Source of the DNA: an uncultured bacterium | Lineage (GTDB): Bacteria > UBP14 > UBA6098 | Direction of reading: 5' to 3' | NCBI GenBank assembly: GCA_964606695.1 | Contig: CAZSHG010000010.1 | Coordinates: 9,497-73,496, forward strand | Length of the DNA: 64,000 nucleotides | Part shown: piece by piece, positions 18,425 to 43,013 of the stretch | Layout: each line of letters opens with the position of its first letter | Position numbering within the stretch: position 1 is the first letter of the stretch | Translations under genes and position numbers: made by a program | The notes under the pieces: generated by a model | What the model was told of the DNA's origin: nothing | The model's input: only the letters and a program-made list of their open reading frames with translations | The model's database searches: none

Positions 18425-18778
18425 TTAGAACGAGAAGGTCAGCGTGGCGTCTTTCGCCTCGTTGATGAATGTGGTCGCGCCGACTACTTCCACGCCCTCG
18501 CGCAAATCTTCCTCGGTGAAGCCGTTGGCTTCGAAGGAAAGCTCGCACATCAGGATTCTTCCGCCGAGAAGCTGGTAGCCCTCGACGAGTTCCATCAGTT
18601 CGGGCATGCCTTTGCCGGTCATGTTTTCCATAACGCCCTTAACCAGAGCGGATGCGCCGCCCGGGGTGAAGAACAGAATAACGTCGTCGCCGGAAGCTAT
18701 CGCCGAAGATGCTACGACGAAAGGCATGAAAATGTTTTCCGGTTTAGCGCCGTTGATTGTGATTGCCATCATTCCCAT
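18425..18778 (-). CDS. DsrE/DsrF-like sulfur-relay family protein (COG2210-type)
   Basis: 117 aa, no signal peptide. MAITINGAKPENIFMPFVVASSAIASGDDVILFFTPGG...ILMCELS is typical of DsrE-like proteins encoded next to TusA and rhodanese. RBS aggaga. Confidence 0.7.
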   Translation of the reverse strand: MGMMAITINGAKPENIFMPFVVASSAIASGDDVILFFTPGGASALVKGVMENMTGKGMPELMELVEGYQLLGGRILMCELSFEANGFTEEDLREGVEVVGATTFINEAKDATLTFSF

Positions 18779-18814
18779 TTGTTTTCTCCTGTTGTTTTTT
18801 GTTTATCGATTGAA

Positions 18815-19663
18815 TTATTCCATCGGGTTAGAAGAAGTCGCCGCCCATTCGTAGATGCCGCCGTCATAGACTTTGACATTCCCATAGTCCAGAACGTTTT
18901 TGAGGGCGAAGTAGATTATGCCGCTACGCAGGCTGGTTTCGCAGTAGATGATGATTTCCTTGTCGGATGTGATTCCGGCGTTGGTGAAGAGGGATTTCAT
19001 TTCCGCCTGGGGAATGAGGGTCTCGTCTTCCGTGATTATTTGCTCATAGTTGAAACTAATCGCGCCGGGGATATGTCCCTTGCGGGATGCTTCGCCCTTT
19101 TCGCCACTGAACTCTTCCGGTGTGCGGACATCGACGAGAACTACGCCGGGTTTGGCCATATTCGCCTTGACATAATCCATGGAAGCGAAGACATCGGGGT
19201 TCAGGGAGACGTTGAAGGTAGTCGGTTCGAGGACAGTGGGGTCTTTTGTAACGGGCTTACGAGCTTTGCGCCAGGCTTTCATCTGGCCGTCGAGCATCGA
19301 AACGTCCTTTGCGCCGAGGTAGTCGAGAATCCAATAGAGTCTTCCGGCTCGAACGCCTGTGTCGCAGTATAGGACTATCTTGTTGGTTTCCGAGATGCCC
19401 TTTTCGCCGAGGATTTTCGCGACGTCTTCGGGGCTTTTGAGCATGCCCTTGATTTCGCCGGGTTTGTCGAGGTCCTCGAACCAGAGATGCATCGCGCCTG
19501 TGATGTGAACTGTGCTGTAATCCGATGCTTTTCTGCCTGAGACGATAATGAGGTTTTCATCACCAGTCATGCCTGCGAGGTCTTTCACGCTGATAAGTTG
19601 CGCCTGAAGCAGACCTGCAAACAGCAGAAGGGCAAGCGAGAACAGTATTAGAGTTTTTTTCAT
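18815..19663 (-). CDS. Exported tandem-rhodanese sulfurtransferase
   Basis: Signal peptide MKKTLILFSLALLLFAGLLQA. Two rhodanese domains, each with an active-site loop Cys: VLYCDTGVRAG and IIYCETSLRSG. Confidence 0.8.
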   Translation of the reverse strand: MKKTLILFSLALLLFAGLLQAQLISVKDLAGMTGDENLIIVSGRKASDYSTVHITGAMHLWFEDLDKPGEIKGMLKSPEDVAKILGEKGISETNKIVLYCDTGVRAGRLYWILDYLGAKDVSMLDGQMKAWRKARKPVTKDPTVLEPTTFNVSLNPDVFASMDYVKANMAKPGVVLVDVRTPEEFSGEKGEASRKGHIPGAISFNYEQIITEDETLIPQAEMKSLFTNAGITSDKEIIIYCETSLRSGIIYFALKNVLDYGNVKVYDGGIYEWAATSSNPME

Positions 19664-19684
19664 TCTTTCTCCTTTTCTATTAGG

Positions 19685-20752
19685 TTAGTTAAACAAAGCC
19701 TGGAATTGGACAACAAGCTCATCATTGGGGACTTCGTTGCCGTATTCGGCTTTGTATAGATAGTTGACCTGAACTCTCGACCAGTCGTTGATGAAGTAGT
19801 TAATGCCGAAAGTAATAATGCCGGTTTCGTCATCTTCGGTATCCGAATCGCGATCGTAGAATTCGTATTTGACCACGGGCTGAAGGTTCCAGGGCGTCAT
19901 ATACGCTATGAAACCCCAGTAGCCGCCGCTTTTGGATTCGCCGGGGGGGACGACTGTGTACCAGGTGGTATCATGGGTGCAGTCAGGGGGATGTGTGACG
20001 GTGCCGCCGGAAGATTCTCTTTTTCCGCCGATATATTCTCCCTGAATGAGTAAATCTTTATAAGCAAATTGTAATTCGCCTGCAAATATCGTCTTTTTGT
20101 CTTCCTCTTCGGCTGTTGGGTCGGCCGCAGGCTGTTTGCCGGTCTGGAAACTCCCGCCGATGTTTAACATCTCGATAGGGGTTACTACGACCCTTGCGAC
20201 GATGTCTTTGGCCTTGTTGTTATCGATATCGGCCAATCCTGTCCCGTGCATTAACCCGATATTGTATCTGACCAAACTTTCGTAGTTGCCGTAAAGCATC
20301 AAACCAAGGTCGCGGTCGAGGACCAAATTGTTCACAACTTCGGAACGATAGATGGTGTATAATGCCTGGCATCCCGTATTTCTTTCGAGTCCGAAAGGAG
20401 TCTTGAATCTACCCATAGAGAAACTGGCGTAGGATTCGAGACGAGTGTATGAGACGAATGCATCCAGGAGCTTGACATCGCCCTTGAAGGGGCTTGTTTC
20501 GAGCAGAAGATAGTAACTGACGTCATATGGGATATTGCCCATGACGCCTAATCTTGCCCGGTTAAAGGTGAAATCGAATCTATTGTCGGCCTCGCCGGAA
20601 GCGTCCTCGGCGAATTTGTATTCCAGCTGAGGCTGAATATAACCGATTACATTGACGCCTTCCGATGAGCCGCCAGCCATGCATCCTTGCGCAAAAAGCG
20701 CTCCCGAATACATGGTGAGTAGAAGAAGCGATAGTAACAACAACCTTCGCAT
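19685..20752 (-). CDS. Outer-membrane porin, porin O/P (OprO/OprP)-like
   Basis: I chose the ATG at 20752 (MRRLLLLSLLLL...), which is preceded by ggaggaaaa; the track start at 20764 is also possible. MGRFKTPFGLERN...LDRDLGLMLYG...YNIGLMHGTG matches the porin O/P signature. Beta-strand periodicity throughout. Confidence 0.6.
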   Translation of the reverse strand: MRRLLLLSLLLLTMYSGALFAQGCMAGGSSEGVNVIGYIQPQLEYKFAEDASGEADNRFDFTFNRARLGVMGNIPYDVSYYLLLETSPFKGDVKLLDAFVSYTRLESYASFSMGRFKTPFGLERNTGCQALYTIYRSEVVNNLVLDRDLGLMLYGNYESLVRYNIGLMHGTGLADIDNNKAKDIVARVVVTPIEMLNIGGSFQTGKQPAADPTAEEEDKKTIFAGELQFAYKDLLIQGEYIGGKRESSGGTVTHPPDCTHDTTWYTVVPPGESKSGGYWGFIAYMTPWNLQPVVKYEFYDRDSDTEDDETGIITFGINYFINDWSRVQVNYLYKAEYGNEVPNDELVVQFQALFN

Positions 20753-20830
20753 ATTTTCCTCCATTGTTTTTTTTACAGGGAGAAGGATGGCTTCCCCCTG
20801 TATGTTATTGTTTCTCTTAAACGTATGTAA

Positions 20831-21787
20831 CTACGGGGTTGTAACCACGTAGGGATAATCTCCCGAAGCCGTCCATTTACTGCTCTCGAGATCGTCGTAG
20901 ATCATGGCGTTCACACCGTATTTGAGGCTCTTAGCATCGTAGCCGAGAACGGTCAGATATGCTGTAGCTACTGCTGAAGTATGTCCTGTCCAGCAATAAG
21001 TTACGATAGTCTGGCTCGGATCGAGATGCATAAAGCCGTCACTGGCGAGGGTTAGGTCTTCATTGATCCTATATGCGCCATCGATGTGGCCATATTGAGT
21101 AACGGCTGTTTCCGGCCAATAGACATTCACGAAGTAATCGGTCGGAGTTTCGAGGACGACACTGCCGTCAATGCCTTTGAATCCGCCGGTAACCATAGCC
21201 TCGACGCGCTCGGCGAGAATAGCCGAACCGGTGGTCGAGTTTGAAGTGATTTCCGGATAGTCGAAGGTTGCCAGTGGCGCTGTAGCCGTTGTAACCCAAC
21301 TCGCATGTCCCGAGGCGATGTTGCCGGTAAAGGAAGTCCATTTATCGAACACGGAATTCCACGAGCTCATGCCGAACTTGAGGTTCTTAGCAGTCGGATA
21401 GCCGCTGAGACGCAATGCTACGACAGCATTACAGGCACTCTGGCCACTATAGCAAGTAACCACGATGGGCAAGGAACCGCTGGCCGCGGCGTCGGTAACG
21501 ATATTCGCCAATGACGAATGAATCGCGCCTTCGATGTGGCCGAGGGTGTCGTAATCGCCCTGACTCCGAATGTCCATAATATAGTAGGAATCGGGATTGG
21601 CCGCGACGTCAGAGGCGGTGATTGTCCAGGCGTTTGTCATATCCGTCAGGTCCATGCTGTTGGCTTCCATGTATTCGACAAGGATATCGAAAGCTGAATC
21701 ATCGGGGGGATCGGTGGAATCTTTACAGCCGCTGAACAATGCCAGCATGGCCATAAGAGTGATAAGCAAATAAGCTTTTTTTAACAT
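20831..21787 (-). CDS. Lipoprotein with two rhodanese domains
   Basis: Lipobox LALFSGC. Active-site-type loops VVTCYSGQSAC and VTYCWTGHTSA. Confidence 0.75.
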   Translation of the reverse strand: MLKKAYLLITLMAMLALFSGCKDSTDPPDDSAFDILVEYMEANSMDLTDMTNAWTITASDVAANPDSYYIMDIRSQGDYDTLGHIEGAIHSSLANIVTDAAASGSLPIVVTCYSGQSACNAVVALRLSGYPTAKNLKFGMSSWNSVFDKWTSFTGNIASGHASWVTTATAPLATFDYPEITSNSTTGSAILAERVEAMVTGGFKGIDGSVVLETPTDYFVNVYWPETAVTQYGHIDGAYRINEDLTLASDGFMHLDPSQTIVTYCWTGHTSAVATAYLTVLGYDAKSLKYGVNAMIYDDLESSKWTASGDYPYVVTTP

Positions 21788-21817
21788 ATTCTCTCCTCAA
21801 AGGATAATTTTTTGGGG

Positions 21818-22267
21818 CTATCCGCCGCAACCGGCCGCAACCGGTTCGGCGTCAAGATCGGCATCGGGATCGAGCCAAAGGGTATAGCCGCCATATAGAT
21901 TGTAGATATTTGTGTATCCGAGCTTGCGAAGTCTCTCTATCGCTAAAGCTCCGCGCTTTCCTTTTTCGGAATAGATGATGATAAAGGCGTCCTTGCCGGG
22001 CTTATCCCAGGCTTGAGCGCGCCAGTATGCATCGTCTTCGATGCTTTTTTCCACCACTCCGAGGGGCATGTTGAAAGCGTAGTCGATATAGCCCTCGTCG
22101 AACTCATAAGGCTCGCGAACATCGAGGAGGATGAATTCGCCTTCCTCGTCGAAAATTGCCTGAAGCTCGTCTCGGTCCATTTCGTAATCGCCCTTGATGC
22201 CGGATCCGCCGCAACCAGTAAGGATTAGGGATACGGCAAGAACTAACAGTATAATTGATTTTTTCAT
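21818..22267 (-). CDS. Lipoprotein with a single rhodanese-like domain (Ser replaces the catalytic Cys) and a C-terminal ...AAGCGG tail
   Basis: I moved the start to the ATG at 22267 (RBS ggaggcgag), which gives MKKSIILLVLAVSLILTGC (lipobox). The loop FIIIYSEKGKRGA aligns with the xxYCxxGxRxx loops of the neighbouring rhodaneses. The ORF ends DPDADLDAEPVAAGCGG-stop. Confidence 0.7.
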   Translation of the reverse strand: MKKSIILLVLAVSLILTGCGGSGIKGDYEMDRDELQAIFDEEGEFILLDVREPYEFDEGYIDYAFNMPLGVVEKSIEDDAYWRAQAWDKPGKDAFIIIYSEKGKRGALAIERLRKLGYTNIYNLYGGYTLWLDPDADLDAEPVAAGCGG

Positions 22268-22280
22268 TATTCTCGCCTCC

Positions 22281-23492
22281 TTAAATTGCGGAAAATTTGC
22301 CGGTTCGTTCGTTCCACTTGACGAATACATACCAGAGGATGATCAACACCGCCATGAGAGCGAATGCCCCGCCGTAGCGCAGATAATCGGGCAGGAAAAT
22401 AGCCTTCTGCGACCAGTCGGGAAGTATGTGTGTAAACCAGGGTCCTACGAACTGAGCCGAGATAGGAGACATGAGTGCGAAACCAAGTCCTGCAAACCAG
22501 AGTTTGATTTGGCCTTCGCCCATACGCCACAATGTTCCGACAGCACACCCGCCGGCGATGACCATTCCCATACCGAAAATGGTGCCGCCGATAAGACCGT
22601 TCAGCCAGAAATTAGGCATGACCCAGACCAAAGCTACAGCCCTTGCTCCGCTTGGATAGGCCGAATTGATGCCCATATATTTCAAGACCGTGAAACCTAT
22701 CAGTCCGACCGCGAGAGCAGACATGACAGCAACCGGAGCCTCCGATTCACCAGTCATAAAAGGTTCGCGGAAAGAACGGGTAACGCAGAAACGCGACCGT
22801 TGACTGATTAATCCGAGAACTAATCCAATAATCGCAAACCAGGTGAGAACATCGTTATTCTTGTAGAAGAATGACGCGCCAATGAGCAGAAACATCATCA
22901 CTAAGAAGCCCAATATAGGTTGCCAGATGCCGGATTTCTCCCTGGCGGCGAGAAGCGTTACGCTCTTGCCCGAACTGAACTTTGGAAGTTTTTCCATTTC
23001 CCATAGAAGATACCTCAGGGCAATAAAAGCCCCCAGGGCAAATCCCAGGGCTAATGGAATCGCGCCGGCGGACAGAGCCGGGATACCGCTCAGGAATCCG
23101 CCAATCGTGCAACTTTTGCCTATATGGCATCCAAGCGCCATCAACACACCGCCAATAAGACCTTTCACCATCTCGCCCAGCGGCGGTATTCGAATGGCGA
23201 ATTCGCGGGACATAAGCGCTCCCACGAAAGCACCGATAACAGTCATCGTGCCGAGAAGGCCGTAAAGGTGATAATGAACCGGTGTTGCTCCTTCGAGACC
23301 GAGAATACCGAACAGCTTGAATATATTCTGTCCCCAGCTGAGATAGGTTCCAGTGCCTCCCCATGGTGATTTAACCATGAAGAGCACAATATTCAGCGTC
23401 GCAAGGATAATCCCGCCGACCCACATAGGCCAGGTTTTCCCGAAGAATGTTAACCAAAGTTGGCGCCAGGCTCCATTTTTAGAGTCTGACAT
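22281..23492 (-). CDS. yeeE: YeeE/YedE family (TsuA-type) sulfur-compound/thiosulfate transporter
   Basis: Polytopic membrane protein. The three conserved Cys contexts of the family are present: GKSCTIGGF, QRSRFCVTRSFRE and GMGMVIAGGCAVGTLWRMGEG. Confidence 0.8.
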   Translation of the reverse strand: MSDSKNGAWRQLWLTFFGKTWPMWVGGIILATLNIVLFMVKSPWGGTGTYLSWGQNIFKLFGILGLEGATPVHYHLYGLLGTMTVIGAFVGALMSREFAIRIPPLGEMVKGLIGGVLMALGCHIGKSCTIGGFLSGIPALSAGAIPLALGFALGAFIALRYLLWEMEKLPKFSSGKSVTLLAAREKSGIWQPILGFLVMMFLLIGASFFYKNNDVLTWFAIIGLVLGLISQRSRFCVTRSFREPFMTGESEAPVAVMSALAVGLIGFTVLKYMGINSAYPSGARAVALVWVMPNFWLNGLIGGTIFGMGMVIAGGCAVGTLWRMGEGQIKLWFAGLGFALMSPISAQFVGPWFTHILPDWSQKAIFLPDYLRYGGAFALMAVLIILWYVFVKWNERTGKFSAI

Positions 23493-23561
23493 ATAACTCC
23501 TTTCTTTTTAACCGTAACTCGTTATGAAATTCGGTCGTTTAGACCGTTTCAATTGTTATGG

Positions 23562-23792
23562 TTATCCTTTTTTGATGTAAAACCTATTGACCCCGCCATC
23601 TTCTTCGACCAGTTCGAGAAACTCGTTGCCGGTTTTCTCGCACCATGCGGGGACGTCGTTCTTCGAACCCGGATCCGTGCCCAGTAGTTCCAGAACCTGA
23701 CCGCTTTCCATTCCCTTAATCGCCTTGGCGAGTTTCAGAATGGGCATTGGACAGGATAGACCTTTGCAATCCAGTGTTTCGTCGACTTTCAT
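23562..23792 (-). CDS. tusA: TusA/SirA-family sulfur carrier (TsuB/YeeD-like partner of YeeE)
   Basis: 76 aa. LDCKGLSCPMPILKLAKAIKGM carries the CPxP motif. RBS gggagg. Confidence 0.85.
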   Translation of the reverse strand: MKVDETLDCKGLSCPMPILKLAKAIKGMESGQVLELLGTDPGSKNDVPAWCEKTGNEFLELVEEDGGVNRFYIKKG

Positions 23793-23822
23793 CTTTTACC
23801 TCCCTTTTGGGTTTTGATAATC

Positions 23823-23895: not shown

Positions 23896-23920
23896 TTTTT
23901 GTTGATTAGAGTATATGCAA

Positions 23921-24193
23921 TCAGCCTTTCTCTATTAGTTCGACAATATTCCAAACGGTCTTATCGATGACTTTATAGCACCTTTTGGAACCTTCCCGCC
24001 TGCCCTTAATAATCTTCAGATTACGAAGAACCCTTAGATGCTGTGAAATGGTGGATTGGGGTATTTTCAGTTTTTCGACCATCATCGAGACCGAACATTC
24101 GTCCTTCATTACCCCGGAGATTATCTGAAGGCGGGTCTTATTAGACAGAGCTTTGAATATCTCGGCGTATTTTTCAAATTCTCTTTCCGTCAT
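23921..24193 (-). CDS. ArsR/SmtB-family winged-helix transcriptional regulator
   Basis: FKALSNKTRLQIISGVMKDECSVSMMVEKLKIPQSTISQHLRVLRNLKIIKGRREG is the canonical ArsR HTH. Two Cys are present (DECSV and KRCYKV). Confidence 0.85.
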   Translation of the reverse strand: MTEREFEKYAEIFKALSNKTRLQIISGVMKDECSVSMMVEKLKIPQSTISQHLRVLRNLKIIKGRREGSKRCYKVIDKTVWNIVELIEKG

Positions 24194-24210
24194 ACTAACA
24201 TAATTCCTAA

Positions 24211-27200
24211 TTAGATATTTAATGCGGCTTCGAGAACCGACGATGTTTGATTATATTTGAATCCAAGTTGCTCCATCGCACCGGAGGGACAGCTCGTCGC
24301 GCAGTTCCCACAGCCCTTACAAAGAGCAATATTGACCTGCGAAACCTGTCTTCCGTCCTTGATTATCACCTTCGGCGCTGTGTAGGGGCAAACGGCTTCG
24401 CATATACCGCACCCAACGCAGACGTCCTGGTTCACCGACGCGATAATAGATTCCGCCGTGTATTTGTCCTTCGATATTAGCGTGCATGCTCTCGCGGATG
24501 CGGCCATAGCCTGAGAAATCGACTCGTCTATAGTCTTGGGTGCGTGCGCCAGTCCCGCCAGGAACACGCCCTCCGTTGCGAAATCCACCGGGCGGAGCTT
24601 CACGTGCGCCTCCAGGAAGAAGCCGTCCTCGTTAAGCGGCGTCTTGAGCATACGCGAAATATCCACCGCGTTGGCTCTCGGAACAACGGCGGGAGCGAGA
24701 ACGAGTAAATCCGGGTTTATTTCCAATCGTTCGCCCAGTATAGGATCATCGACCTTCACGCGAATAGTGTCGCCGTCCTGCGTTACTACGGGCTTTTCGG
24801 CCTCGGTGTATCGGATGAAGATAACACCTGCATTCCGCGCTTTCTGATAATATTCCTCGCCGAAGCCGTAAGTCCTGATGTCCCGATAGAGTATGTAGAT
24901 ATTCGCTTTGGGGTTTTCCTCGGCCAGTTTGATCGCGTTTTTAATTGCCTTAGTGCAACAAATCCGCGAGCAATAGGGGTGTTTTTCGTCCCGCGACCCG
25001 ACGCATTGTATCATCACGACGTTCTTGGTCTTTTTCAGGGACTTATCCTCCGGATCGAAAAGCCTCTCTTCCAGTTCATTTTGTGTGAGGACTTTATCGT
25101 TTTCGCCGTAAAGATATTCTTCCGGTTCGTATTCCTCGCCGCCCGTAGCTACTACAATAACACCGTGTTCGATCGGTCTGTCCTCGCCGCCACTGTCAAC
25201 GATTTCCGTTTTGTAATTACCGATATATCCGTCGATGTCCTTTATCTCCGCGCTATTAAACAGGGTTATTTTTGGATGGTTCTCAACGGAGTAAATCAGG
25301 TCTTTCAGATATCCCTGCACGTCCTCGCCGGCGGGAGTGGAGTATATGTTGCGCATATTGCCGCCGAGTTCCGCTTCCTTTTCGACGAGGGTAACATCGA
25401 ACCCCTGATCCGCGATCGAGAGCGCGGATACCATACCGGCCAAACCGCCACCAATAACCAGCGCACTCTGATCGACGTCGAGAGTAACTGTCGGCAACGG
25501 TTCGAGCAGACACGATTTAGCGACCGCCATCCTCAGGAGCTTTCTGGCCTTTTCGGTGGCTTTTTCAGGTTCTTCACGATGCACCCAGGAGCATTGATCA
25601 CGAATATTCGCCATCTCGAACAGGCGCGCGTTCAATCCCGATTCGCGCAGGGTCTCCTGGAAAAGCGGCTCGTGCGTCCTCGGCGAACACGACGCCACAA
25701 CTATCCTGTTAAGCCCGTATTCGGCTATCTTATCTTTGATCTTTTCCTGTGTGTCCTGCGAACAGGTGAAAAGGTTATCCTCGGCGTAGGCTACGTTCGG
25801 CAATGTGTATGCGTAATCCACGAGCGATGGGACATCGACGACACTGCCGATATTTATTCCGCAGTGGCACACGAATACCCCGATTCGCGGCTCTTCCATC
25901 CTGACGTCCCTCTCAGGTGGATAGACCTTCTCCGCAATCGCCGTCCCTCTGACTTCGGCGAGGATACTTTCCGCGCCGGCGACCGCTCCAGATGCCTGTG
26001 TTACGGTTTCCGGGATGTCCTTCGGCGCGCTTGCCGGGCCACATACGAAGATTCCTTCGCGAGACGTTTGCACAGGTTTGAAAGTCGATGTCTCGACGAA
26101 AGAATGTTGGTTCAACCTTATTCCGAGACGTCTTTCGAGTTCGGACGTAGTGTCCGTCGGCTCGAAACCGACTGAGAGAACGACCATATCGAATTCCTCG
26201 GCATATTGACGCCCGTTTTCCTCGGTAGAATAATATACCATCAAATTGCCCGTTTCGGGTATATCGACGACCTTTCCGACACGCGACCGAATGAACCGAA
26301 CGCCCGTCTCGTCTTTTGCCCTGTTATAATAGGCCTCGAAGTCTTTGCCGTAGGCGCGTAAATCCATGAAGAATATAGTCGGCTCGATGTGTTTCTCGTG
26401 TTCCTTTGCGATCACCGCCTCTTTTATGGCATACATACAGCATACCGATGAGCAATATTTCTTATGATCGATTTCGTCCCTGCTCCCCACGCACTGTATC
26501 CACGCGATCTTACGCGGACTTGAATCGTCGGAAGGTCTCTGGATATGACCGCCAAAAGGCCCCGACGCCGATAGCATACGCTCGAATTGAATACTCGTCA
26601 GGACGTTGGGATATCTGCCGTATCCGTATTCGTATTTATGTGATGGATCGTATTTCTTCGCGCCGTTGGCCAGGATAATCGCGCCGACATCGACCTCGAC
26701 TACTTCGCTGACCATATCGTGCAAAACGGCATCTGCTTCACACGCGCTCTCACACTCGAGGCATCCGGAACACAAGCCGCATTCCAGGCATCTTTCGGCC
26801 TCAGCCATAGCCTCCTCTTCCGAAAAGCCGAGTTCGAATTCCACGAAACTCTTCGTTCTCTTTTCCATTTCGACGGTCGGCATGACCGCTCTGGGTTTTC
26901 TGTCTGTGATTTCAGGGAGAGGTTTCATGGGCAATTCCTCGTCGGGGACGTTCCTGCCCGCGCCGATGTCCCGGCCGGTTAAGAACCTGTCGATAGAAAT
27001 CGCCGATTCGTTGCCCTGATGGACGGCTTCGACAATCGATGCCGGGCCGAGAACAATATCGCCGCCCGCGAATACCCCCGGGATATTCGTTTCCAGAGTT
27101 ATCGGATCGACTTCGATTACGCTTCTATTTAATTCGATCGCGTCGAATCCGTTCAAATCGGAACGCTGACCTATCGCGATAATCACCGTGTCAGCCTTAA

Positions 27201-28668
27201 TATCTTCGGTCTTCTCCTTTTCATCGTAAACCGGCGAGAAGGAGCCCTCTTCATTATATACCGAAGTGCATCGCACTGTTTTAACTCCAACCACACGACC
27301 GTTTTCGATTATCAAATCCTTCGGGCCGAGTCTGTCGTGAACCGCAACGCCCTCTTCTTCGGCCTCCTCGATTTCCCAAACGTGTGCGGGCATCCTGTCC
27401 TTCGATGTTAGATCGCGCGTTTCAAGGCACATCAGATCGACGCTTCCCGCGCCGAGCCTCACAGCAGACCTCGCGCAGTCCATAGACACATTGCCGCCGC
27501 CTATCACGAGGACGCGTTTGCCGAAACCTTTTATTTCCTCGCCTTTCTTTGCGGCACGGAGGAAGTCCAGTCCGAGAAGAACGCCGTGGGATTTGCCATA
27601 TTCGCCGAATAGGGTTGATGGATTCTGGAATCCGATCGCAACGTAAAGGGCGTCGTGTTTCTTCTGAAGCTCTTCGAGAGAAATATCGCGCCCGACACGA
27701 ACGCCCATCTTCAGCTCGATTCCACTGGCCAGGATATTGTCGATATCCTGATTTGCTATTTCCTTCGGTATCCTGTAATCGGGCAAACATGAAATCAACA
27801 TACCCCCCGGTTCCTCGGCCTCGTCGTAAACCGTGACCGAATAACCGAGGTTGCGCAGTCTCATCGCGCAGGTAAGGCCTGAAGGCCCCGCGCCGACTAT
27901 CCCGATTGTCTTGTCGCTGGTTATCTCGACCGGTTCCGGACGCGGAAAGTCGCCCTCATATTCCCTGTCAGCGATGTATCTCTTCAGCGAAGCTATCGCT
28001 ATAGGTTCGTCGTATTCGCTACGTCGGCAATTGCTTTCGCATGGGTGATGGCATACCCTTCCGCAGATAGATACGAAAGGATTATGCCGCCTGATAAGTT
28101 CATAAGCCTCGTGGTATTTTTTCTCCTTAGCAAGCGCTACGTAACCCTGAACGTGTATCCCCGCGGGACAATTCGTTTCGCAGGGAGGCCGCAGTTTCTT
28201 ATCGATTACGAAAGCGTTCGGAAAGGCCTGAGCGTAAGGTTTATATATCGCGGTCTGCTGAACAAGACCCTCGTCGAAAATAGATACGGTTTTAACCGGA
28301 CATACCTCGGCGCACTCGCCGCAACCCGTGCAATCTTCCAGACTGATGAAACGGGGATGTTTGAGAACTTTCGCTTTGAAATTCCCCGATTCGCCTTCGA
28401 GAGAAAGCAGTTCGGAGTTGGTCATCAGGTCGATATTGAGATGTCGCCCGCATTCCACAAGTTTGGGGGAGACGATACACATCGCGCAGTCGTTGGTGGG
28501 GAAGGTCTTGTCCAACTGCGCCATAATCCCACCGATAGCCGCCGTTTCCTCGACAAGGTAAACCTTGAATCCGGAATTAGCGAGGTCCAGCGAGGATTGA
28601 ATCCCCGCAATGCCCGCGCCTACTACTAAAACAGCGCCTTTTTTTTCCAATTGTCTTTTATCGCTCAT
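24211..28668 (-). CDS. 1485-aa HdrA-HdrA tandem flavoprotein with an inserted NfnB/GltD-type NAD(P)H-FAD module (HdrL-like)
   Basis: N-terminus [37 protein letters not shown]. The insertion carries [14 protein letters not shown]...[29 protein letters not shown] and [14 protein letters not shown] (GltD/NfnB signature). HdrA motifs follow: [41 protein letters not shown], second FAD fold [38 protein letters not shown], and a C-terminal 2x[4Fe-4S] ferredoxin ([24 protein letters not shown]). Confidence 0.85.
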   Translation of the reverse strand: [1485 protein letters not shown]

Positions 28669-28731
28669 ATTTCCACCGGGAGTTGAATAGTTATTTTCTA
28701 CAATAATCCTGCCTATAAATATCGATAAACA

Positions 28732-29850
28732 TTAATCTTCGGTTAATTTTTCACGATGTCTGGCCGCTCGCTTTTTCTTTTTATCTACAAAGGTCTCGAT
28801 CGTCTTGCCAATCGTGGTCTGTTCTGTATCTGATAATTTCGAAACCTCGATGTATTTCTGGTTCAGGGCGTCCGTGAAGACCTGTTTAGCGAATGTCGAT
28901 CTTATCATGACGGTCGTATATCCCTCCGGCGAACCCAATCCACCAACGGAAACGTCGGCGAAGTCGTTTGCGAAATCCTCGCAGAACAGGCAGGCGGGAC
29001 GCGCAATGTCCTCTATTTCATTGAAAGGGATATGGACCGAAACGCCCGATTTCAGTTCCAGCCGGAAATTTTCCTTGACGTTCATTTTGGTTATATCGGT
29101 CGGGGTTATCTGATGTTTTTTAATAAATTCTTTCTCCATCAGATTATCGAAAGCGAAACACTGCATACAGAATAATCCGACAGTGAAATGGATTATATCG
29201 GAAGGCAGGATATTCAACGCCTGCATCTTCCTGATAGCCAGTATCTGGCAGGGCGTTCCGACAGCCGCGATCCTTATCTGCCTCTTGGGTTTGATTTTCT
29301 GAACCGTCGATATCACTGGAACGTAATTAGTATATTTTTGCCCGATCTTGTCCAGATGTTGGGCTTCCGCGAAAGCCGATCCCGCGGCCTCGATGAGTTC
29401 CTCGCGGTTCTTGGCAATCGCTGGGTCACGGCTGAAAAGCCCTGTTCGTCGTGAGACTATAGCCCCGTCGATGATATTATTTTCCAGCATATACCACAGT
29501 AAAGCCGTAACAACTCCGCCATCAGTGGCGGCTTCGAGGATTTCGATGTCCGTTGCCTGAGCCATGAAAATATCTCTGTAACGTCCAATTGGCGGCTTCC
29601 AGCCGAATTCCTCGCGGATTCTTCCATTGAGATCCTGTGTTTGCGGACATATCAAATAGCAAATCCCGCATTTATAACACAAATCCGGATCGACCCATTG
29701 AGGGATGTTGTCCTCGCAATCGCACATTTGTATAGCGCCCACTCTGCAAGCCGTGCAAAAGGAAACACATGCGCCACAATTATTGCAAAGCCCTTTGTCG
29801 ATAACGTCTCGTTTGAGATCGTCGAAACTTAGTTTGTCGTTCTGGTTCAC
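28732..29850 (-). CDS. FrhB/FdhB/FpoF-family flavoprotein (F420 hydrogenase/dehydrogenase beta-like) with an N-terminal 2x[4Fe-4S]
   Basis: GTG start with RBS ggaga. CNNCGACVSFCTAC and CYKCGICYLICP. GGVVTALLWYMLENNIIDGAIV and VGTPCQILAIRKMQ...GLFCMQCF are the FrhB N- and C-domain signatures. Confidence 0.75.
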   Translation of the reverse strand: MNQNDKLSFDDLKRDVIDKGLCNNCGACVSFCTACRVGAIQMCDCEDNIPQWVDPDLCYKCGICYLICPQTQDLNGRIREEFGWKPPIGRYRDIFMAQATDIEILEAATDGGVVTALLWYMLENNIIDGAIVSRRTGLFSRDPAIAKNREELIEAAGSAFAEAQHLDKIGQKYTNYVPVISTVQKIKPKRQIRIAAVGTPCQILAIRKMQALNILPSDIIHFTVGLFCMQCFAFDNLMEKEFIKKHQITPTDITKMNVKENFRLELKSGVSVHIPFNEIEDIARPACLFCEDFANDFADVSVGGLGSPEGYTTVMIRSTFAKQVFTDALNQKYIEVSKLSDTEQTTIGKTIETFVDKKKKRAARHREKLTED

Positions 29851-29865
29851 TGGTATCTCCAGGTT

Positions 29866-30339
29866 TTATGTGCTTGCACGTTTGAGCTTTTCATCGACCA
29901 TTTTCTCGATCTTAGCGCGTTGCTTATCGGTAGGTTCGATAATATGGCGCACGAAATTGCATCTGAGATCCTGGCAGTATCTATCGAGTTCCTCCACCTG
30001 TTCGATTCTATCTTCGGGAGAATATCCCTGTTCGACGGACATCTCTCGAATAACACCCATTACATCCGCGAACTTGACGTTCTGTGGGCAACGGGCGTAA
30101 CAGACGTAGCATCTCTGGCACATCCAGATTATCTCGGAACTGAGAACGGCGTCGCGCATGCCGAAAATCGACATACGGATGATCTTGCGCGGGTCATAAT
30201 CGTCGTTGACCTCAGCTACGGGGCAACTTGCGGTGCAAGTTCCGCAGGTGAAGCACAGCTTGAAATTCTCCGCTCCCGGTCTCGAGGCTATCTCCTCTTT
30301 GAATTTCGGATCCTGTTCACTCAATACGATTGTATCCAT
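29866..30339 (-). CDS. hdrC: HdrC-like heterodisulfide reductase subunit C (2x[4Fe-4S])
   Basis: 157 aa. CFTCGTCTASCP ... DPRKIIRM ... IWMCQRCYVCYARCPQNV matches the HdrC layout. Confidence 0.75.
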   Translation of the reverse strand: MDTIVLSEQDPKFKEEIASRPGAENFKLCFTCGTCTASCPVAEVNDDYDPRKIIRMSIFGMRDAVLSSEIIWMCQRCYVCYARCPQNVKFADVMGVIREMSVEQGYSPEDRIEQVEELDRYCQDLRCNFVRHIIEPTDKQRAKIEKMVDEKLKRAST

Positions 30340-30355
30340 TATATATCTCCCTTTT

Positions 30356-31189
30356 CTAAATCTCTTCGGGGATTTCTTCTATTTCCGCGAATGAAAACAC
30401 CGGGCCGTCGAAACACACGTATTTCGACCCGATATTACACCGTCCGCATTTGCCGATACCGCATTTCATACGCCTTTCAAGCGACGTATATATTCTATCG
30501 GGTGGAAAACCGAGTTCAGCGAGTGTCGGTAGCGTATATTTTATCATAATAGGCGGGCCGCAAAGCATGACCCACGTGTCTTTGGAGCTGGGTGAAATCT
30601 CCTTCGTTACGGTCGGCACGAAACCGACCATCTTGTCCCAGCCCTCGACTTCCTCGTCTATCGTGAGATGAACTGTGATATCGTTTTCCTTCTCCCAATC
30701 TTCGAGTTCGTCGCGATATATCATCAAACCCGGGCGTCGTGCGCCGTATATCATCGTGATATCGCCGTAATCGTTGCGATTGGCCTTGTCCCGAAGATAA
30801 ACGGTCAGCGAACGCAACGTCGTCAGTGCGAATCCGCCGCTGATTATTACGACGTTCTTGCCTTTGAATTCCTCTACGGGATAATAATTCCCCAGCGGCC
30901 CGCGGATGCCGATTACATCGCCCTCACGAAGGTGATGCAGTTCTGTCGTAACTACGCCGACACGGTTTACGGTGAAACGTAAAAAATCCCTTTCCGTGGG
31001 GGAGGAGGCTATTCCGAAAGGAGCTTCGCCGACGCCGGGAATCGATAACTGGCAGAACTGACCGGGTAGATAATCGAAGGCGTCTTCTTCGTTGACGAAT
31101 TCCAGGTCGAAAGTCCGCAGTGTCTTGTCGTCCGATTCGTTGCGGATGCTCTTAACTCGCACCGGGATGGGCATATATACGTTCTTCAT
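30356..31189 (-). CDS. FAD/NAD(P)-binding oxidoreductase with a C-terminal [2Fe-2S] (AsrB / sulfhydrogenase gamma / PyrK-NfnA-like)
   Basis: Ferredoxin-reductase-type fold (RTFDLEF..PGQF..., VIISGGFALTTL). C-terminal CGIGKCGRCNIGSKYVCFDGPVF. ATGA overlap with the upstream gene. Confidence 0.75.
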   Translation of the reverse strand: MKNVYMPIPVRVKSIRNESDDKTLRTFDLEFVNEEDAFDYLPGQFCQLSIPGVGEAPFGIASSPTERDFLRFTVNRVGVVTTELHHLREGDVIGIRGPLGNYYPVEEFKGKNVVIISGGFALTTLRSLTVYLRDKANRNDYGDITMIYGARRPGLMIYRDELEDWEKENDITVHLTIDEEVEGWDKMVGFVPTVTKEISPSSKDTWVMLCGPPIMIKYTLPTLAELGFPPDRIYTSLERRMKCGIGKCGRCNIGSKYVCFDGPVFSFAEIEEIPEEI

Positions 31190-32220
31190 ACCACAGCTCC
31201 TTCGGACTTTGCAGTTTCAATCGCCTTTGTCATAAACTCCCTGACATCGATGTTCACCGGGCATAGGCTTATACATCTTCCGCAACCGACGCATCCGAAC
31301 TCGCCCTGAGTTTCGACCATATAACTGAACTTATGCATGAACCTTTGCCTGAGCCGCGACATTTGCGACTTCCGTGGATTGTGTCCCGAACCTTCCTTCG
31401 TGAAAATCGGGAACTGGCAGGTGTCCCAGATTCGCAATCGCACGCCCTTACCGCGCCTGCTCTCATCCTGAATGTCGAAGCAATAGCAGGTGGGGCAGGA
31501 GAAGGTGCAAACAGCGCAACCGAGACATTTTGCCGTAACCTCGTCCCAGAAAGAATCGTCGAAAAGGGAATCCAGCGATGCCTTGAGCGGTTCCAGTTCG
31601 GGCGACTTCGCCATAGATTCGAGAGCCTTTTCTCCGATTGCCTCCGCCCTTTCGATATCGCCACTACAGGCCTTTTCGACGCTCTTCAATGAAGAAATCG
31701 CTTTCTCGCCGTTTTCCGTGATGGATTTGAGTATATAATCCTCTCCGATGTCGATAGCCAGCACGTCTGAACCGCTAACGTCGAAAGGCCCGCCGCCCAT
31801 CCAGTTGCAGAAACAGGAGGACAGCGGCAAGTTACAACCCAGAGATATTACCAGTGAATTCTCGCGTCTGGCCGCCCAGTAGAAATCCCTGTATTTGTCG
31901 TCGTCGAAGACGCGTTCGACGGTAACGAAACCCTTCGCGTCGCAAGGCCGGACTCCAAATATCCCTATAGGTTTGCCGGTATATTTATTCGATTTCGTGT
32001 CCTCTTTATCGAATCTGAGCATTACCTCGGTTTGCGGATAATATATTTCCTTTGGCGGTTTCCGCGTGCGAAGGAAGCTTGTATCCGGCGATTCGCCCTT
32101 ATCGAGCTTCTCGAAAGACGTTATCCCATCTCGTTCGACCGGCCCGTAAACCGAGTATTTTTCCGCGAGTTCCTCGATGAAGCCGTTCAGGTTTTTCTTT
32201 TTAAGTTTATATGTTTCCAT
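31186..32220 (-). CDS. AsrA / sulfhydrogenase-beta-like iron-sulfur protein
   Basis: VRPCDAKGF, CLGCAVCTFSCPTCYCFDIQDE and CVGCGRCISLCP. Paired with the AsrB-like gene by a 4-nt overlap. Confidence 0.65.
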   Translation of the reverse strand: METYKLKKKNLNGFIEELAEKYSVYGPVERDGITSFEKLDKGESPDTSFLRTRKPPKEIYYPQTEVMLRFDKEDTKSNKYTGKPIGIFGVRPCDAKGFVTVERVFDDDKYRDFYWAARRENSLVISLGCNLPLSSCFCNWMGGGPFDVSGSDVLAIDIGEDYILKSITENGEKAISSLKSVEKACSGDIERAEAIGEKALESMAKSPELEPLKASLDSLFDDSFWDEVTAKCLGCAVCTFSCPTCYCFDIQDESRRGKGVRLRIWDTCQFPIFTKEGSGHNPRKSQMSRLRQRFMHKFSYMVETQGEFGCVGCGRCISLCPVNIDVREFMTKAIETAKSEGAVV

Positions 32221-32280
32221 TTGTTAACCGCTATTATTTCAAGTTTTTATTCATATAAATAAGCTTAGTTAATTGCTATA

Positions 32281-33237
32281 TCACAAAATAAACTCTTCGC
32301 TATCGTCCTCTTTGAAAGTGGCAAGCGCGGGCGGAGTTTCAAAATCCATACCCGCGACATAATCGAAGCGTTCAAGGACCTCTTTCTCGACACGTTTGCC
32401 CAGCAGACGGACATCTATATCGAGGGGACACGCTGACGCGCAAGCGCCGCAATCCACGCAACGTCCAGCCATGTGCAACGCACGGACTATATGATACACG
32501 AAATTGTCCGGCAGATTATTGCCCTTGCCGAGCCAGGCCGGCATTGACCTGTCGACAAAGCATTCTTCGCAGTAACACATCGGGCAGGCGTTTCTGCAGG
32601 CGTAACAGCGGATACAAGAGCTGTATTCAACCTCGAAATAAGCCCATCTCTCGTCGATAGGTTTACCCGCGAATTCCTCGATGTCCGCGAAATGTTCCTT
32701 CCCGCCGATCGGTTCCGCCGGCTCGCCGATGAAATGGTCATATTGGGGCGCATTTGGATGTTGGCATGTCAGGCAGTTATCCTGCAAAAGCTCGATTAAC
32801 GGCACTTTGCGCTCGAAATCGTCGCTTATCAATATTATATTATCGCCGTCGATTTTATAATCGGTCAGGTCGCCGTTGTCGGTTGCATCGCGCAACTTCT
32901 TCCTGTCGATGACTCCCTCGCAGGGGACACCGATGATAACTACCTTCTCGCGTGGGAATTGGTCTTCGACGACTATCTGCGTAATAGCCCTCGCGTCGCA
33001 ACCTCTGGCGACAACCCCTATCTTGCGCGGCCCGTCGGGGCGTTTTTTCTCGTCGTTGAGGTATTTGGCCAACGTATTAGCGCAGGTGAAATCGAAAATC
33101 AAGCCGTCCAGTTCCTCGATCGATTCGAAGAACCTCAAAGTTCCGCGCAGAGGGACACTACCCTTCTCGAAGCCGATAACGAGGTCGAGTTCCTCATCGG
33201 CGAATATCTTTTTTACACTATCGATTAGCTCGCTCAT
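32281..33237 (-). CDS. AsrA-family-like iron-sulfur protein (paralog)
   Basis: ARGCDARAI, CIRCYACRNACPMCYCEECFVD and CVDCGACASACP. The cysteine architecture matches 31186-32220, 37262-38344 and 38341-39510. Confidence 0.55.
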   Translation of the reverse strand: MSELIDSVKKIFADEELDLVIGFEKGSVPLRGTLRFFESIEELDGLIFDFTCANTLAKYLNDEKKRPDGPRKIGVVARGCDARAITQIVVEDQFPREKVVIIGVPCEGVIDRKKLRDATDNGDLTDYKIDGDNIILISDDFERKVPLIELLQDNCLTCQHPNAPQYDHFIGEPAEPIGGKEHFADIEEFAGKPIDERWAYFEVEYSSCIRCYACRNACPMCYCEECFVDRSMPAWLGKGNNLPDNFVYHIVRALHMAGRCVDCGACASACPLDIDVRLLGKRVEKEVLERFDYVAGMDFETPPALATFKEDDSEEFIL

Positions 33238-33246
33238 ATAAAATCC

Positions 33247-33690
33247 TTATAATTGATCGACGTTCTCGTAAAGCCCGGTTTTAACCATCTTTGTAGCCGG
33301 TCCAAGTTTGCGAACGGTCTCCGTTACGTGGGAAATCACCTTGGAGAATTTTTCGCCCTCTCCCGCGGATACCCACGAGAACTGGACTCTGTCCGGTTCG
33401 ATGCCGATGAATTCGAGCATCGTCTTTAGTATGGCAAATTTCCGCCGTGCCACATAATTCCCCGAAATGTAATGGCAATCCCCCGGATGGCATCCCGATA
33501 CCAACACGCCGTCGTAGCCGTCCTGAAGGCATTTCAGAATAAACATCGGATCGACTCTGCCCGAACAGGGCACACGTATCACACGTGTATTAGTCGGATA
33601 CTGGATGCGCGAAACCCCCGCCAGGTCGGCGCCCGCGTAAGAACACCAATTGCATAGAAAAGCCATTATTTTAGGTTCGAATTCGGCCAT
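33247..33690 (-). CDS. mvhD: MvhD/FlpD-like protein (methyl-viologen-reducing hydrogenase delta subunit family), copy 1
   Basis: FLCNWCSYAGADLAG...RVPCSGRVDP...GYDGVLVSGCHPGDCHYISGN. Confidence 0.85.
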   Translation of the reverse strand: MAEFEPKIMAFLCNWCSYAGADLAGVSRIQYPTNTRVIRVPCSGRVDPMFILKCLQDGYDGVLVSGCHPGDCHYISGNYVARRKFAILKTMLEFIGIEPDRVQFSWVSAGEGEKFSKVISHVTETVRKLGPATKMVKTGLYENVDQL

Positions 33691-33717
33691 AATTACCGCC
33701 GTTTCAAGCTATTGTTA

Positions 33718-36700: not shown

Positions 36701-36765
36701 TCCAGCGATGCCTGTATTCCCGCGATTCCAGCGCCTATAACTATAATTGATTTGCTTTTAGCCAT
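33718..36765 (-). CDS. hdrA: 1015-aa fused double HdrA-family flavoprotein
   Basis: [78 protein letters not shown], second fold [38 protein letters not shown], and a C-terminal [12 protein letters not shown] / [11 protein letters not shown]. Confidence 0.85.
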   Translation of the reverse strand: [1015 protein letters not shown]

Positions 36766-36824
36766 CTTACAATTCCTATATGCTATTGTTTTCGCGATAT
36801 ATGAATTTCATAACTCATTGGTAA

Positions 36825-37262
36825 TTATAAAAATACCTCATCGGATATATTATTCGGTCCTAAGTCTTTTATTTTATCCGTATATTCGGTAATAACTTGA
36901 GCGAATCGAGGCCCTTCCGAAGCCGAAATCCACGAAAGGCGTATCCGGTCGCTTTCAAGCCCGAAGGTATCCAGGATTTTCTTCATCATGGCGAATCTAC
37001 GTCGGGTGTAGTAATTTCCCTTCTGGTAATGGCAATCCCCCGGATGGCAACCGCCCACCAGGACCGCATCCGCGCCGCGAAGAAGTGCAGTTAGAAGGAA
37101 TAAAGGATCCACGCGACTCGAACACATCACCCGAATAGGCAGTATCGACGGGGGATACTGAAGCCTGCTCGTGCCCGCCAGATCCGCGCCGGTATATGTG
37201 CACCAGTTGCACAGAAAACCTATAATTCTCGGCTCGAATTCCTCTTTTTTATCTTTTCCCAT
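36825..37262 (-). CDS. mvhD: MvhD/FlpD-like protein, copy 2
   Basis: I moved the start to the ATG at 37262 (TAATG overlap with the upstream stop), which gives MGKDKKEEFEPRIIGFLCNWCTYTGADLAG... The 110-codon R-rich extension in the track overlaps the upstream gene. Confidence 0.8.
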   Translation of the reverse strand: MGKDKKEEFEPRIIGFLCNWCTYTGADLAGTSRLQYPPSILPIRVMCSSRVDPLFLLTALLRGADAVLVGGCHPGDCHYQKGNYYTRRRFAMMKKILDTFGLESDRIRLSWISASEGPRFAQVITEYTDKIKDLGPNNISDEVFL

Positions 37263-39510: not shown

Positions 39511-39552
39511 ATATGCTCTTCGGTTTATTAAATTATCGCTTTCATGCTATAT

Positions 39553-41250: not shown

Positions 41251-41272
41251 TCTCCCGCTGGATAAGGAGTGT

Positions 41273-42559: not shown

Positions 42560-42590
42560 GATAAACTTTCTGATGTTGTAGTTCTTACTA

Positions 42591-43013
42591 TCAATAGGGC
42601 GTTTGCTTGAGGGGATTCGGCCCCAGTTCTTTTATCTTCGACGTGAACTGATTAACCACGTCGGCATATCTGCGCCCCTCGGCGGCGGATACCCACGCCA
42701 GCTCTACCCGATCCGGATCGATGTTCAGGCTCTCGAGAACCTTCTTGAGCTGAGCGAACCTTCTTCGGGTAAAATAGTTTCCCTCTTTGTAATGACAATC
42801 CCCCGGATGGCATCCCGCGACCAGAACGCCGTCCGCGCCCCAGAGCAGGGCGTTGAGAACCATACCCGGATCGACGCGGCTCGAACACATCACACGCGTT
42901 ACCGAAATCGACGGCGACACATCGAATTTGTTCGACCCGGCCAAATCCGCGCCAGTATAAGAACACCAGTTGCAAAGGAAGCCGACTATATTCGGCATGA
43001 ATTCGTCAGACAC
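42591..43013 (-). CDS. mvhD: MvhD/FlpD-like protein, copy 3
   Basis: GTG start preceded by aaggtg. MSDEFMPNIVGFLCNWCSYTGADLAG...RVMCSSRVDP...GADGVLVAGCHPGDCHYKEGN. Confidence 0.85.
   Translation of the reverse strand: MSDEFMPNIVGFLCNWCSYTGADLAGSNKFDVSPSISVTRVMCSSRVDPGMVLNALLWGADGVLVAGCHPGDCHYKEGNYFTRRRFAQLKKVLESLNIDPDRVELAWVSAAEGRRYADVVNQFTSKIKELGPNPLKQTPY

Follow-up and report, generated by a model that had tools for sequence, protein, structure and literature searches.

A rhodanese-fold lipoprotein with serine at the catalytic position and a C-terminal glycine-flanked cysteine arm: a candidate envelope sulfur carrier

A 64,000-nucleotide stretch of contig CAZSHG010000010.1 (the window, with all positions counted from its first letter), derived from an uncultured bacterium of the lineage UBP14, encodes on its minus strand a 149-residue lipoprotein that has a rhodanese fold, lacks the catalytic cysteine and terminates in ...AAGCGG (21818..22267, stop codon 21818-21820). 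Comparison of this target protein with its relatives indicates that the cysteine-bearing C-terminus is real and conserved. Judged from sequence, the protein would combine a rhodanese scaffold with a swinging-arm carrier. We give about an even chance to its being a persulfide or polysulfide carrier that works through Cys147 and feeds a YedE-type channel, followed by TusA, DsrE and an Hdr-like complex.

The target protein and the family of its C-terminal arm

The target gene (minus-strand reading frame 22267..21818; full product MKKSIILLVLAVSLILTGCGGSGIKGDYEMDRDELQAIFDEEGEFILLDVREPYEFDEGYIDYAFNMPLGVVEKSIEDDAYWRAQAWDKPGKDAFIIIYSEKGKRGALAIERLRKLGYTNIYNLYGGYTLWLDPDADLDAEPVAAGCGG, 149 residues) lies between a YedE/YeeE-like gene (22281-23492) and the gene for a tandem-rhodanese lipoprotein (20831-21787), as the first-pass annotation of the window had placed it. 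A GGAGG sequence 8 nt 5' of its ATG abuts the stop codon of the YedE/YeeE-like gene, and the gap between the two genes is 13 nt. The start at 22267 is backed by the N-termini of homologues, which begin MKK or MRK. A start at the upstream ATG 22330, giving a 170-residue reading frame, was rejected: it overlaps the 3' end of the YedE-like gene, has no ribosome-binding site and finds no support among homologues.

Residues 1-19 (22211..22267, minus strand) read as a signal peptide and lipobox ending ...LILTG-C19, the motif from which lipoprotein status was deduced. The N-terminus, MKKSIILLVLAVSLILTG-C19, conforms to the lipobox pattern [LVI][ASTVI][GAS]C. Cys19 is invariant among the 42-55 relatives in our alignments and would be lipid-modified; the protein is presumably periplasmic. 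The rhodanese homology domain spans residues 33-132 (21872..22171, minus strand; assigned with Pfam, AlphaFold2 and Foldseek) and includes the family-specific insertion PLGVVEKSIEDDAYWRAQAWDKPGKD. Rhodanese (PF00581) is the sole Pfam domain, with E = 1.9e-16 and 60.8 bits against a cutoff of 22.2. AlphaFold2, using a 55-sequence alignment, returned pLDDT values of 94-97 for residues 30-140, and the Foldseek matches of this model were all rhodaneses (6mxv, 6bev (TSTD1), 3gk5 and 1gmx (GlpE), probability 1.00), with 6bev at ranks 2-3 and 1gmx at rank 44. The best sequence match in the PDB, 6mxv, is without a tail.

An acidic C-terminal arm occupies residues 133-149 (21821..21871, minus strand; LDPDADLDAEPVAAGCGG), as defined by tail conservation, synonymous codon changes and pLDDT. 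The protein ends in ...DPDADLDAEPVAAGCGG, encoded by gcg gcc ggt tgc ggc gga tag exactly as first reported, with the Cys147 codon at 21829-21827. Cys147 and the lipobox Cys19 are the only two cysteines, so the mature target has a single free thiol, three residues from its C-terminus. Over the last ~9 residues the block-mean pLDDT drops to ~50, and residues 146-149 score below 50. The arm tip is predicted by AlphaFold2 to be disordered, as a mobile arm was expected to be.

Close homologues were few. A search of 5.8 billion proteins yielded only seven (60-89% identity), all ending in GCGG and five of the seven in GGCGG. Two further orthologues, L009 and L010, came from GTDB species representatives and also end in GCGG; a scan of these representatives found a close ortholog in only three species. 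GGCGG closes seven of the nine orthologues (P0001-P0007, L009 and L010); P0001 has TGCGG and P0002 SGGCGG, and the target itself AGCGG. L010 is 50% identical and has a wholly different linker, EGGEEAYEELLKKEAAPKVSGGCGG, followed by an identical ending. Across ten loci the glycine and cysteine codons differ synonymously (GGC/GGT/GGA and TGC/TGT), and the stop codon always comes directly after the tail. The C-terminal cysteine proved invariant in homologues and the stop falls after GG in every orthologue despite the synonymous changes, two outcomes on which the earlier description of the tail depended. Chance or an assembly artefact was considered as the origin of the tail and its stop and rejected: in ten independent loci the stop lies right after GG or C, with synonymously different codons. 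This pattern argues for a tail under selection.

The architecture extends well beyond these orthologues. About 40 of the best 150 representative clusters in a profile search of 1.8 billion clusters end in GGC, GGCG or GGCGG. A search from P0008, which is more distantly related, returned 99 homologues: GGC closes 78 of them, GCGG 11 and GCG three. Among these homologues are proteins of cultured Marinifilum annotated just as "rhodanese-like domain-containing protein". Some 120 more distant tail-bearing lipoprotein rhodaneses, mainly from Bacteroidota, combine an acidic linker with a GGC, GGCG or GGCGG ending. The tail statistics cover 29 CG(G) and 91 GC members, with linkers of 18-48 residues and a median net charge of -5. 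Common to all family members are a lipobox, a PRGxLEFxI...FW...P insertion, the rhodanese core and an acidic linker before the Gly-flanked cysteine, and a rough neighbour-joining tree separates the family as monophyletic from its tail-less relatives. We propose a new family on these shared features, the envelope lipoprotein rhodaneses with a C-terminal Gly-flanked Cys arm; the target displays every one of them. Pfam has no named family for the target beyond Rhodanese, NCBIfam has no family model and gives it sub-threshold generic rhodanese matches only, and open-access papers and preprints yielded no description of the tail-rhodanese architecture. The combination of lipobox, rhodanese domain and acidic linker with a GGC, GGCG or GGCGG terminus could serve as an annotation signature in place of the generic "rhodanese-like domain-containing protein".

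The active-site loop

The active-site loop of the target, IIIYSEKGKRGA, is degenerate. Residues 99-105 (21953..21973, minus strand; assigned from alignment columns) read Y-S-E-K-G-K-R, with Ser100 (codon tcc, 21970-21968) in place of the catalytic cysteine. This column holds cysteine in 134 of the 148 relatives in a 148-sequence alignment. Active rhodaneses are recognised by the nucleophilic cysteine of a CX4R loop; the target has Ser100 in that column and zero other cysteines in the domain, and the mature protein offers no alternative active-site cysteine. The substitution had been noticed by comparison with four neighbouring loops, LYCDTGVRAG, IYCETSLRSG, VTCYSGQSAC and TYCWTGHTSA, all of which are present in the 282-residue and 318-residue proteins of the same operon.

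It had further been suggested that the catalytic cysteine was exchanged for the arm, and here the wider family speaks otherwise. Catalytic residues were assigned from alignment columns and counted over sequences of 140-260 residues. Cysteine occupies the catalytic column in 92 proteins with a ...GC tail, 16 with ...CGG and two with ...CG; serine occupies it in ten with ...CGG and glycine in one, also with ...CGG. Since 110 tail-bearing members keep the catalytic cysteine and 11 have Ser or Gly, the arm predates the loss and did not replace anything. The Gly-flanked tail cysteine thus appears to be ancestral, with the catalytic cysteine lost later, inside the arm-bearing, YedE-linked lineage.

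Ser-for-Cys is conserved in the window clade, as had been anticipated. The catalytic cysteine is still present in P0005, inside this clade, and in P0147 beside it; the Ser codon TCC and the Cys codon TGC differ by one base. The loop arginine is also gone in several other Ser variants (SRKGLLG, SQKHKLS and SKKGKLG). The alignments suggest that the active-site loop is degenerating, whereas the tail has been kept unchanged.

In a second clade of paralogues the catalytic column (IYIYSQTxDRA) likewise holds Ser or Gly. Its members lack the FW insertion, end in ...EESGGCG(G) and are located at L090 2125-2664, L099 3372-3881, L100 9415-9930, L101 13515-14048, L104 660-1178, L096 786-1316 and L102 1643-2158. 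A Cys-bearing, arm-bearing paralogue is found near the second-clade gene in each of these loci, and tusA-yedE lies upstream wherever the contig extends far enough (L090, L099, L100 and L101). The existence of two clades of Cys-less arm proteins indicates that the Cys-less, arm-only form is a recurrent, maintained type.

The operon and the genomic context of the tail endings

The target belongs to a minus-strand operon with the order arsR, tusA, yedE-like, target, 318-residue tandem-rhodanese lipoprotein, Porin_O_P, 282-residue tandem rhodanese and dsrE-like, with intergenic gaps of 13-69 nt from tusA onwards. The ArsR-family regulator (23921..24193; Pfam HTH_5) is positioned upstream of the operon and is also found in L001, L005 and L094. 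It is followed by a TusA-like cytoplasmic sulfur carrier with a CPMP motif (23562..23792; Pfam TusA, 1.5e-27), which is syntenic in all ...CG(G) loci. Both proposed sulfur donors have cysteine in both of their loops: the 318-residue tandem-rhodanese lipoprotein (20831..21787), a conserved cassette member, and the secreted 282-residue tandem rhodanese (18815..19663), which is SseA/3-MST-like. In the former the loops VTCYSGQSAC and TYCWTGHTSA contain the cysteine and lack the usual loop arginine. Its mature N-terminus, C-KDSTDPPDD, resembles what we take to be the acidic lipoprotein export signal of Bacteroidota; if this resemblance holds, the protein may be surface-exposed and able to mobilise extracellular sulfur. 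Between the two donors is the gene for an outer-membrane porin of the phosphate-selective porin O/P family (19685..20764; Pfam Porin_O_P, 5.6e-16), another conserved cassette member and the proposed entry point for anionic sulfur. The last gene encodes a DsrE-like cytoplasmic sulfurtransferase (18425..18778; Pfam DsrE and DrsE_2), syntenic in L001 and L005-7.

Window positions 18369-18401 form a perfect hairpin (AAAGCAAGGATTGAAAATTTTAATCCTTGCTTT) whose stem is 15 bp long. It lies 24 nt 3' of the dsrE-like stop codon, and probably marks the operon end. A promoter and terminator scan of 17900-24300 gave counts equal to those of shuffled controls and defined no operon boundaries; only this hairpin stood out.

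The proposed acceptor of the arm is the 403-residue YedE/YeeE-like membrane protein (22281..23492, minus strand; Pfam Sulf_transp). Its NCBIfam scores are all below cutoff (YedE/FdhT, 123.6 versus 350; TsuA/YeeE, 98.9 versus 400 and 78.7 versus 645), and it is a Sulf_transp superfamily member without an assigned subfamily. S. thermophila YeeE (6LEO), a thiosulfate channel of known structure, is a homologue of this protein, which keeps counterparts of YeeE Cys22, Cys91 and Cys293 (RSRFC, AGGCAVG and KSCTIGG). Its two homologous halves are swapped relative to 6LEO, with residues 220-352 corresponding to 6LEO 6-127 and residues 70-158 to 6LEO 236-323.

The ending of the arm was compared with gene context by annotating all arm-bearing ORFs in ~170 fetched loci by BLAST against reference proteins. 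We counted distinct CG(G) loci with enough upstream sequence (n=13) and GGC loci whose upstream sequence reached 1.5 kb or more (n=20). Genes with a ...CG or ...CGG ending follow immediately downstream of tusA and the 403-residue yedE-like gene in 13/13 informative loci, compared with 0/20 for ...GGC genes. Upstream of the latter is either a divergent crp-like regulator or an octahaem cytochrome with a cytochrome b, and downstream are mostly PsrA/B/C-like genes. The PsrA-like proteins of these loci carry twin-arginine signals (SRRDFIK), which places them in the periplasm. HdrA, MvhD, TusA or DsrE genes are found near ...CG(G) loci. What co-varies with a ...CG(G) ending is the YedE/YeeE-like channel together with TusA. 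At the level of sequence the earlier idea of a new periplasmic sulfur carrier is largely upheld, and neither Pfam nor NCBIfam names the family, nor does the searchable literature describe it; the likely partner has to be revised, from Sox to the channel and TusA.

Most loci of both tail types have in common a cassette made up of the tail rhodanese, a tandem-rhodanese lipoprotein, Porin_O_P and a tandem rhodanese; among CGG loci this cassette is partial in L094, and none is within reach in L090. The gene order of the window recurs in L001, L005-7, L008, L009 and L010, and T9SS-type domains encoded at L001 may indicate an affinity with the FCB group. The tail ending seems to go with the system as a whole and not to act as a simple YedE tag.

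Two further features were seen at the Psr and GGC-type loci. In L002 (17594-19970), L111 (16070-18675) and L106 (18775-20419) a split Sulf_transp pair lies downstream of PsrABC-like genes and is followed by two membrane-anchored rhodanese-like proteins. These have a strongly basic linker, end in ...KKKRAEGGC (in L002 and L111, and apparently also in the truncated gene of L106) and lack a canonical catalytic cysteine; they constitute a third class of Cys-arm rhodanese. An octahaem cytochrome (eight CxxCH, PF11783) is encoded directly upstream of GGC-type genes at L089 (5184-7978) and also in L093, L106, L108, L111, L112, L116, L120 and L133. A cytochrome b/PAS protein separates it from the arm rhodanese in L089 and L093, the loci where gene calls were read. 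The octahaem cytochrome may be a periplasmic reductase of tetrathionate, polysulfide or another sulfur compound that is fed by the cassette.

Upstream of the operon in the window is a ~19 kb cluster of HdrA-, MvhD- and FrhB-like Fe-S flavoproteins (24211..43013, minus strand; Pfam). It encodes a 1485-residue fusion of a GltD/NfnB-like module with HdrA, a 1015-residue double HdrA-like protein, three MvhD (FlpD) proteins and FrhB-like subunits. No match to the HdrB CCG domain, DsrAB, AprAB or Sat was obtained among the scanned window ORFs. Other ...CG(G) loci also have HdrA and MvhD genes at their flanks. This cluster is likely the cytoplasmic redox system that receives imported sulfur, and the genes around the target point to an anaerobic metabolism of the Hdr/Mvh type.

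A putative sulfur relay and competing explanations

The carrier role is favoured because the operon holds every part that a relay needs and because SoxY and SoxT offer a precedent. The cysteine of the SoxY GGCGG motif is an established covalent sulfur-binding arm (PMC6067878), and Li et al. proposed that sulfur passes from the SoxY cysteine along three cysteines of the YeeE-like SoxT channel to TusA (PMC11582611). In the window, polysulfide or thiosulfate anions would enter through the Porin_O_P channel of the operon, and the two Cys-bearing tandem rhodaneses, with four domains between them, would turn them into protein persulfides. Sulfane sulfur could then move onto Cys147. The rhodanese domain of the target, its catalysis presumably lost through Ser100 and partial decay of the loop, would act as a scaffold for a short, flexible, acidic Gly-Cys-Gly-Gly arm, and the degenerate but still cationic loop (KGKR) may shelter this arm when loaded. 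Free of side chains, the arm could enter the periplasmic mouth of the adjacent YedE/YeeE-like channel, from where sulfur would travel along the channel cysteines to cytoplasmic TusA, DsrE and finally the Hdr-like flavoprotein complex. The target is probably translationally coupled to the channel gene, and its rhodanese-borne arm would stand in for SoxYZ in such a relay. We infer the persulfide loading, the identities of donor and acceptor and the direction of sulfur flow.

Several points weigh against a carrier role. YeeE of E. coli and Spirochaeta takes up thiosulfate in free form with no carrier in the periplasm, and transport may therefore not require the arm. AlphaFold2 confidence is high to about residue 140, which leaves a free arm of only ~9 residues. 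GGC tails also occur on the membrane-anchored rhodanese-like proteins beside the split Sulf_transp pair in Psr loci, and the ending is thus no simple YedE code. The link between ending and context could partly reflect shared ancestry, a lineage effect being possible because the neighbour-joining tree is rough. Sulfur carriage by Cys147 is likewise something we infer.

A more specific version of the carrier reading is an envelope-spanning covalent Cys-to-Cys relay, in which the arm of the dead rhodanese presents sulfane sulfur and plugs into the periplasmic YedE/YeeE vestibule, and the residues after the cysteine encode the partner (G or GG would specify the importer, and the lack of any residue the periplasmic Psr or octahaem reductases). 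We offer this version tentatively, as a possibility that is rather more apt to be wrong than right. If true, it would supply the missing periplasmic donor for importers of the YeeE/SoxT family and would mean that the swinging-arm carrier principle evolved independently a second time.

The likeness to SoxY, emphasised in the first-pass annotation, extends no further than the C-terminal motif, which the target has as AGCGG and on a non-homologous scaffold. SoxY, as part of SoxYZ in Sox thiosulfate oxidation, is also periplasmic, with a Gly-flanked cysteine at the extreme C-terminus on a flexible arm; the relevant passage of PMC6067878 (with Sauve et al. 2007 cited there) describes this cysteine as covalently carrying sulfur intermediates between partner active sites. 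The target differs in having a rhodanese alpha/beta fold where SoxY has a beta-sandwich, in being a lipoprotein, and in lacking a SoxZ partner or nearby Sox enzyme genes. It gives no SoxY Pfam match, and no Sox gene (SoxZ, SoxXA or SoxB) was found among the scanned ORFs of the 64-kb window or in ~30 related loci. From these comparisons the resemblance appears convergent and limited to the motif, and the target plausibly works like SoxY though outside the SoxY family. That it is a true SoxY-type carrier for Sox enzymes (SoxXA and SoxB) whose genes lie in another part of the genome is very improbable: the GGCGG of most orthologues is identical to the SoxY motif, but the fold, the absent Sox genes and surroundings indicative of anaerobic Hdr/Mvh-type metabolism all speak against it.

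Other sulfur-handling proteins share parts of the design. Sud of Wolinella succinogenes (PDB 1qxn, a weak sequence match to the target, E = 7e-6) and Aquifex SbdP are likewise of single-domain rhodanese fold; they bind sulfane or polysulfide sulfur and supply Psr. The ...GGC relatives of the target, encoded beside PsrABC-like genes, are functionally closest to these two. Sud and SbdP carry sulfur on the catalytic-loop cysteine and have no C-terminal Cys arm, whereas the target is lipid-anchored with a serine in its loop. PspE (periplasmic), GlpE and TSTD1, also single-domain rhodaneses, match the target in fold and size but have the CX4R catalytic cysteine. They lack the conserved C-terminal cysteine and the lipobox, and no FW-rich insertion separates their beta-3 and beta-4. 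DsrC and TusE are sulfur-trafficking proteins with a conserved cysteine on a flexible C-terminal arm that reaches partner active sites. Unlike the target, they are cytoplasmic, have another fold and a two-Cys arm (CX10C), and partner with DsrAB or DsrK.

At the level of gene clusters, the YTD cluster (yedE-like, tusA, dsrE-like and two conserved hypotheticals) has been proposed as a marker of sulfur disproportionators (PMC8780430). Compared on the three named genes, the window operon resembles it, with yedE-like, tusA and dsrE-like in one transcription unit; it differs by four envelope genes between yedE and dsrE (tail rhodanese, tandem-rhodanese lipoprotein, porin and tandem rhodanese). The operon thus appears to be a variant of the YTD cluster with an envelope module inserted. 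A similar pairing, of a rhodanese lipoprotein and an outer-membrane channel devoted to a chalcogen oxyanion, is seen in ExtH/ExtI of Geobacter sulfurreducens (PMC5877670), although ExtI is not a Porin_O_P protein and the Ext cluster is built around multihaem cytochromes.

This last parallel raises the question of selenium. The cassette might handle selenite that enters through the porin, is bound by the rhodaneses and the tail cysteine as selenotrisulfide or perselenide, and is imported by the YedE/FdhT-like protein. In NCBIfam the membrane protein does score highest against the selenium-associated YedE/FdhT model (123.6 bits), and the 282-residue rhodanese has a weak likeness to ExtH, from the selenite/tellurite operon of Geobacter (NCBIfam NF040901, 59.1 bits against a cutoff of 200; the target gives no match). 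A rhodanese lipoprotein plus porin (ExtH/ExtI) is tied to selenite uptake in passages of PMC5877670 and of a reference cited in PMC13510729. Both scores nevertheless fall far under their cutoffs of 350 and 200, the porin is Porin_O_P and not ExtI, and the conserved partners are sulfur relay and redox proteins (TusA, DsrE, HdrA/MvhD, PsrABC-like proteins and octahaem cytochromes). No selD, selA, selB or selenoprotein gene was seen among the scanned window ORFs, and a seven-gene operon is large for a trace-element need. We therefore hold a selenium function to be quite unlikely.

Two other explanations keep sulfur as the substrate or dispense with chemistry altogether. The tail cysteine could be a resolving or regulatory thiol that attacks persulfides or polysulfides of the partner rhodaneses, and ancestrally of its own catalytic cysteine, so releasing sulfide or forming a gating mixed disulfide; the protein would then be a redox adaptor or brake. 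Most of the family has both a catalytic and a tail cysteine, as expected of a nucleophile paired with a resolving thiol, and the arm modelled by AlphaFold2 is flexible. Yet the tail is unchanged in two clades without the catalytic cysteine, so its role is independent of a cysteine in the same protein. There is no obvious periplasmic reductant for a mixed disulfide, with no thioredoxin- or DsbD-like gene in the operon, and strict adjacency to the YedE-like gene suits delivery better than quenching. We judge this explanation unlikely. A somewhat smaller probability goes to a structural role, in which Cys147 would form a disulfide tether to a partner, for instance the porin, a tandem rhodanese or the YedE-like protein, and the inactive domain would be a docking subunit without chemistry. 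Inactive rhodanese domains commonly act as docking modules, the mature protein has a single free cysteine, synteny is tight and the gene start is coupled to the yedE stop codon. A tether leaves unexplained, however, the strict glycine flanking, the two discrete endings (GGC versus GGCG(G)) and the fact that the closest known motif is a substrate-carrying arm; members with an active cysteine also have the same tail.

The carrier reading would bear on two acknowledged gaps: how sulfane or zero-valent sulfur crosses the outer membrane and periplasm, and how it is handed over to importers of the YeeE/SoxT type or to periplasmic polysulfide reductases. Sulfur has been described as reaching the cytoplasm "by unknown means" (PMC11582611), and the outer-membrane route of polysulfide as not elucidated (PMC13510729). 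An envelope cassette of an anion porin, Cys-bearing rhodaneses and an arm-bearing rhodanese is a concrete, widespread and testable candidate for both. The arm ending predicts the type of locus, YedE-TusA importer or periplasmic reductase. If the carrier reading is true, the swinging-arm solution known from SoxY and DsrC arose once more, this time on a rhodanese.

Elsewhere in the window, two giant ORFs were found on the minus strand at 10542-17912 (2456 residues) and 51143-57832 (2229 residues). The 2456-residue ORF has long internal repeats of ~190 residues rich in D, V, L and T and looks secreted or surface-located; beside it, at 8719-10474, are two proteins with Lcl_C domains.

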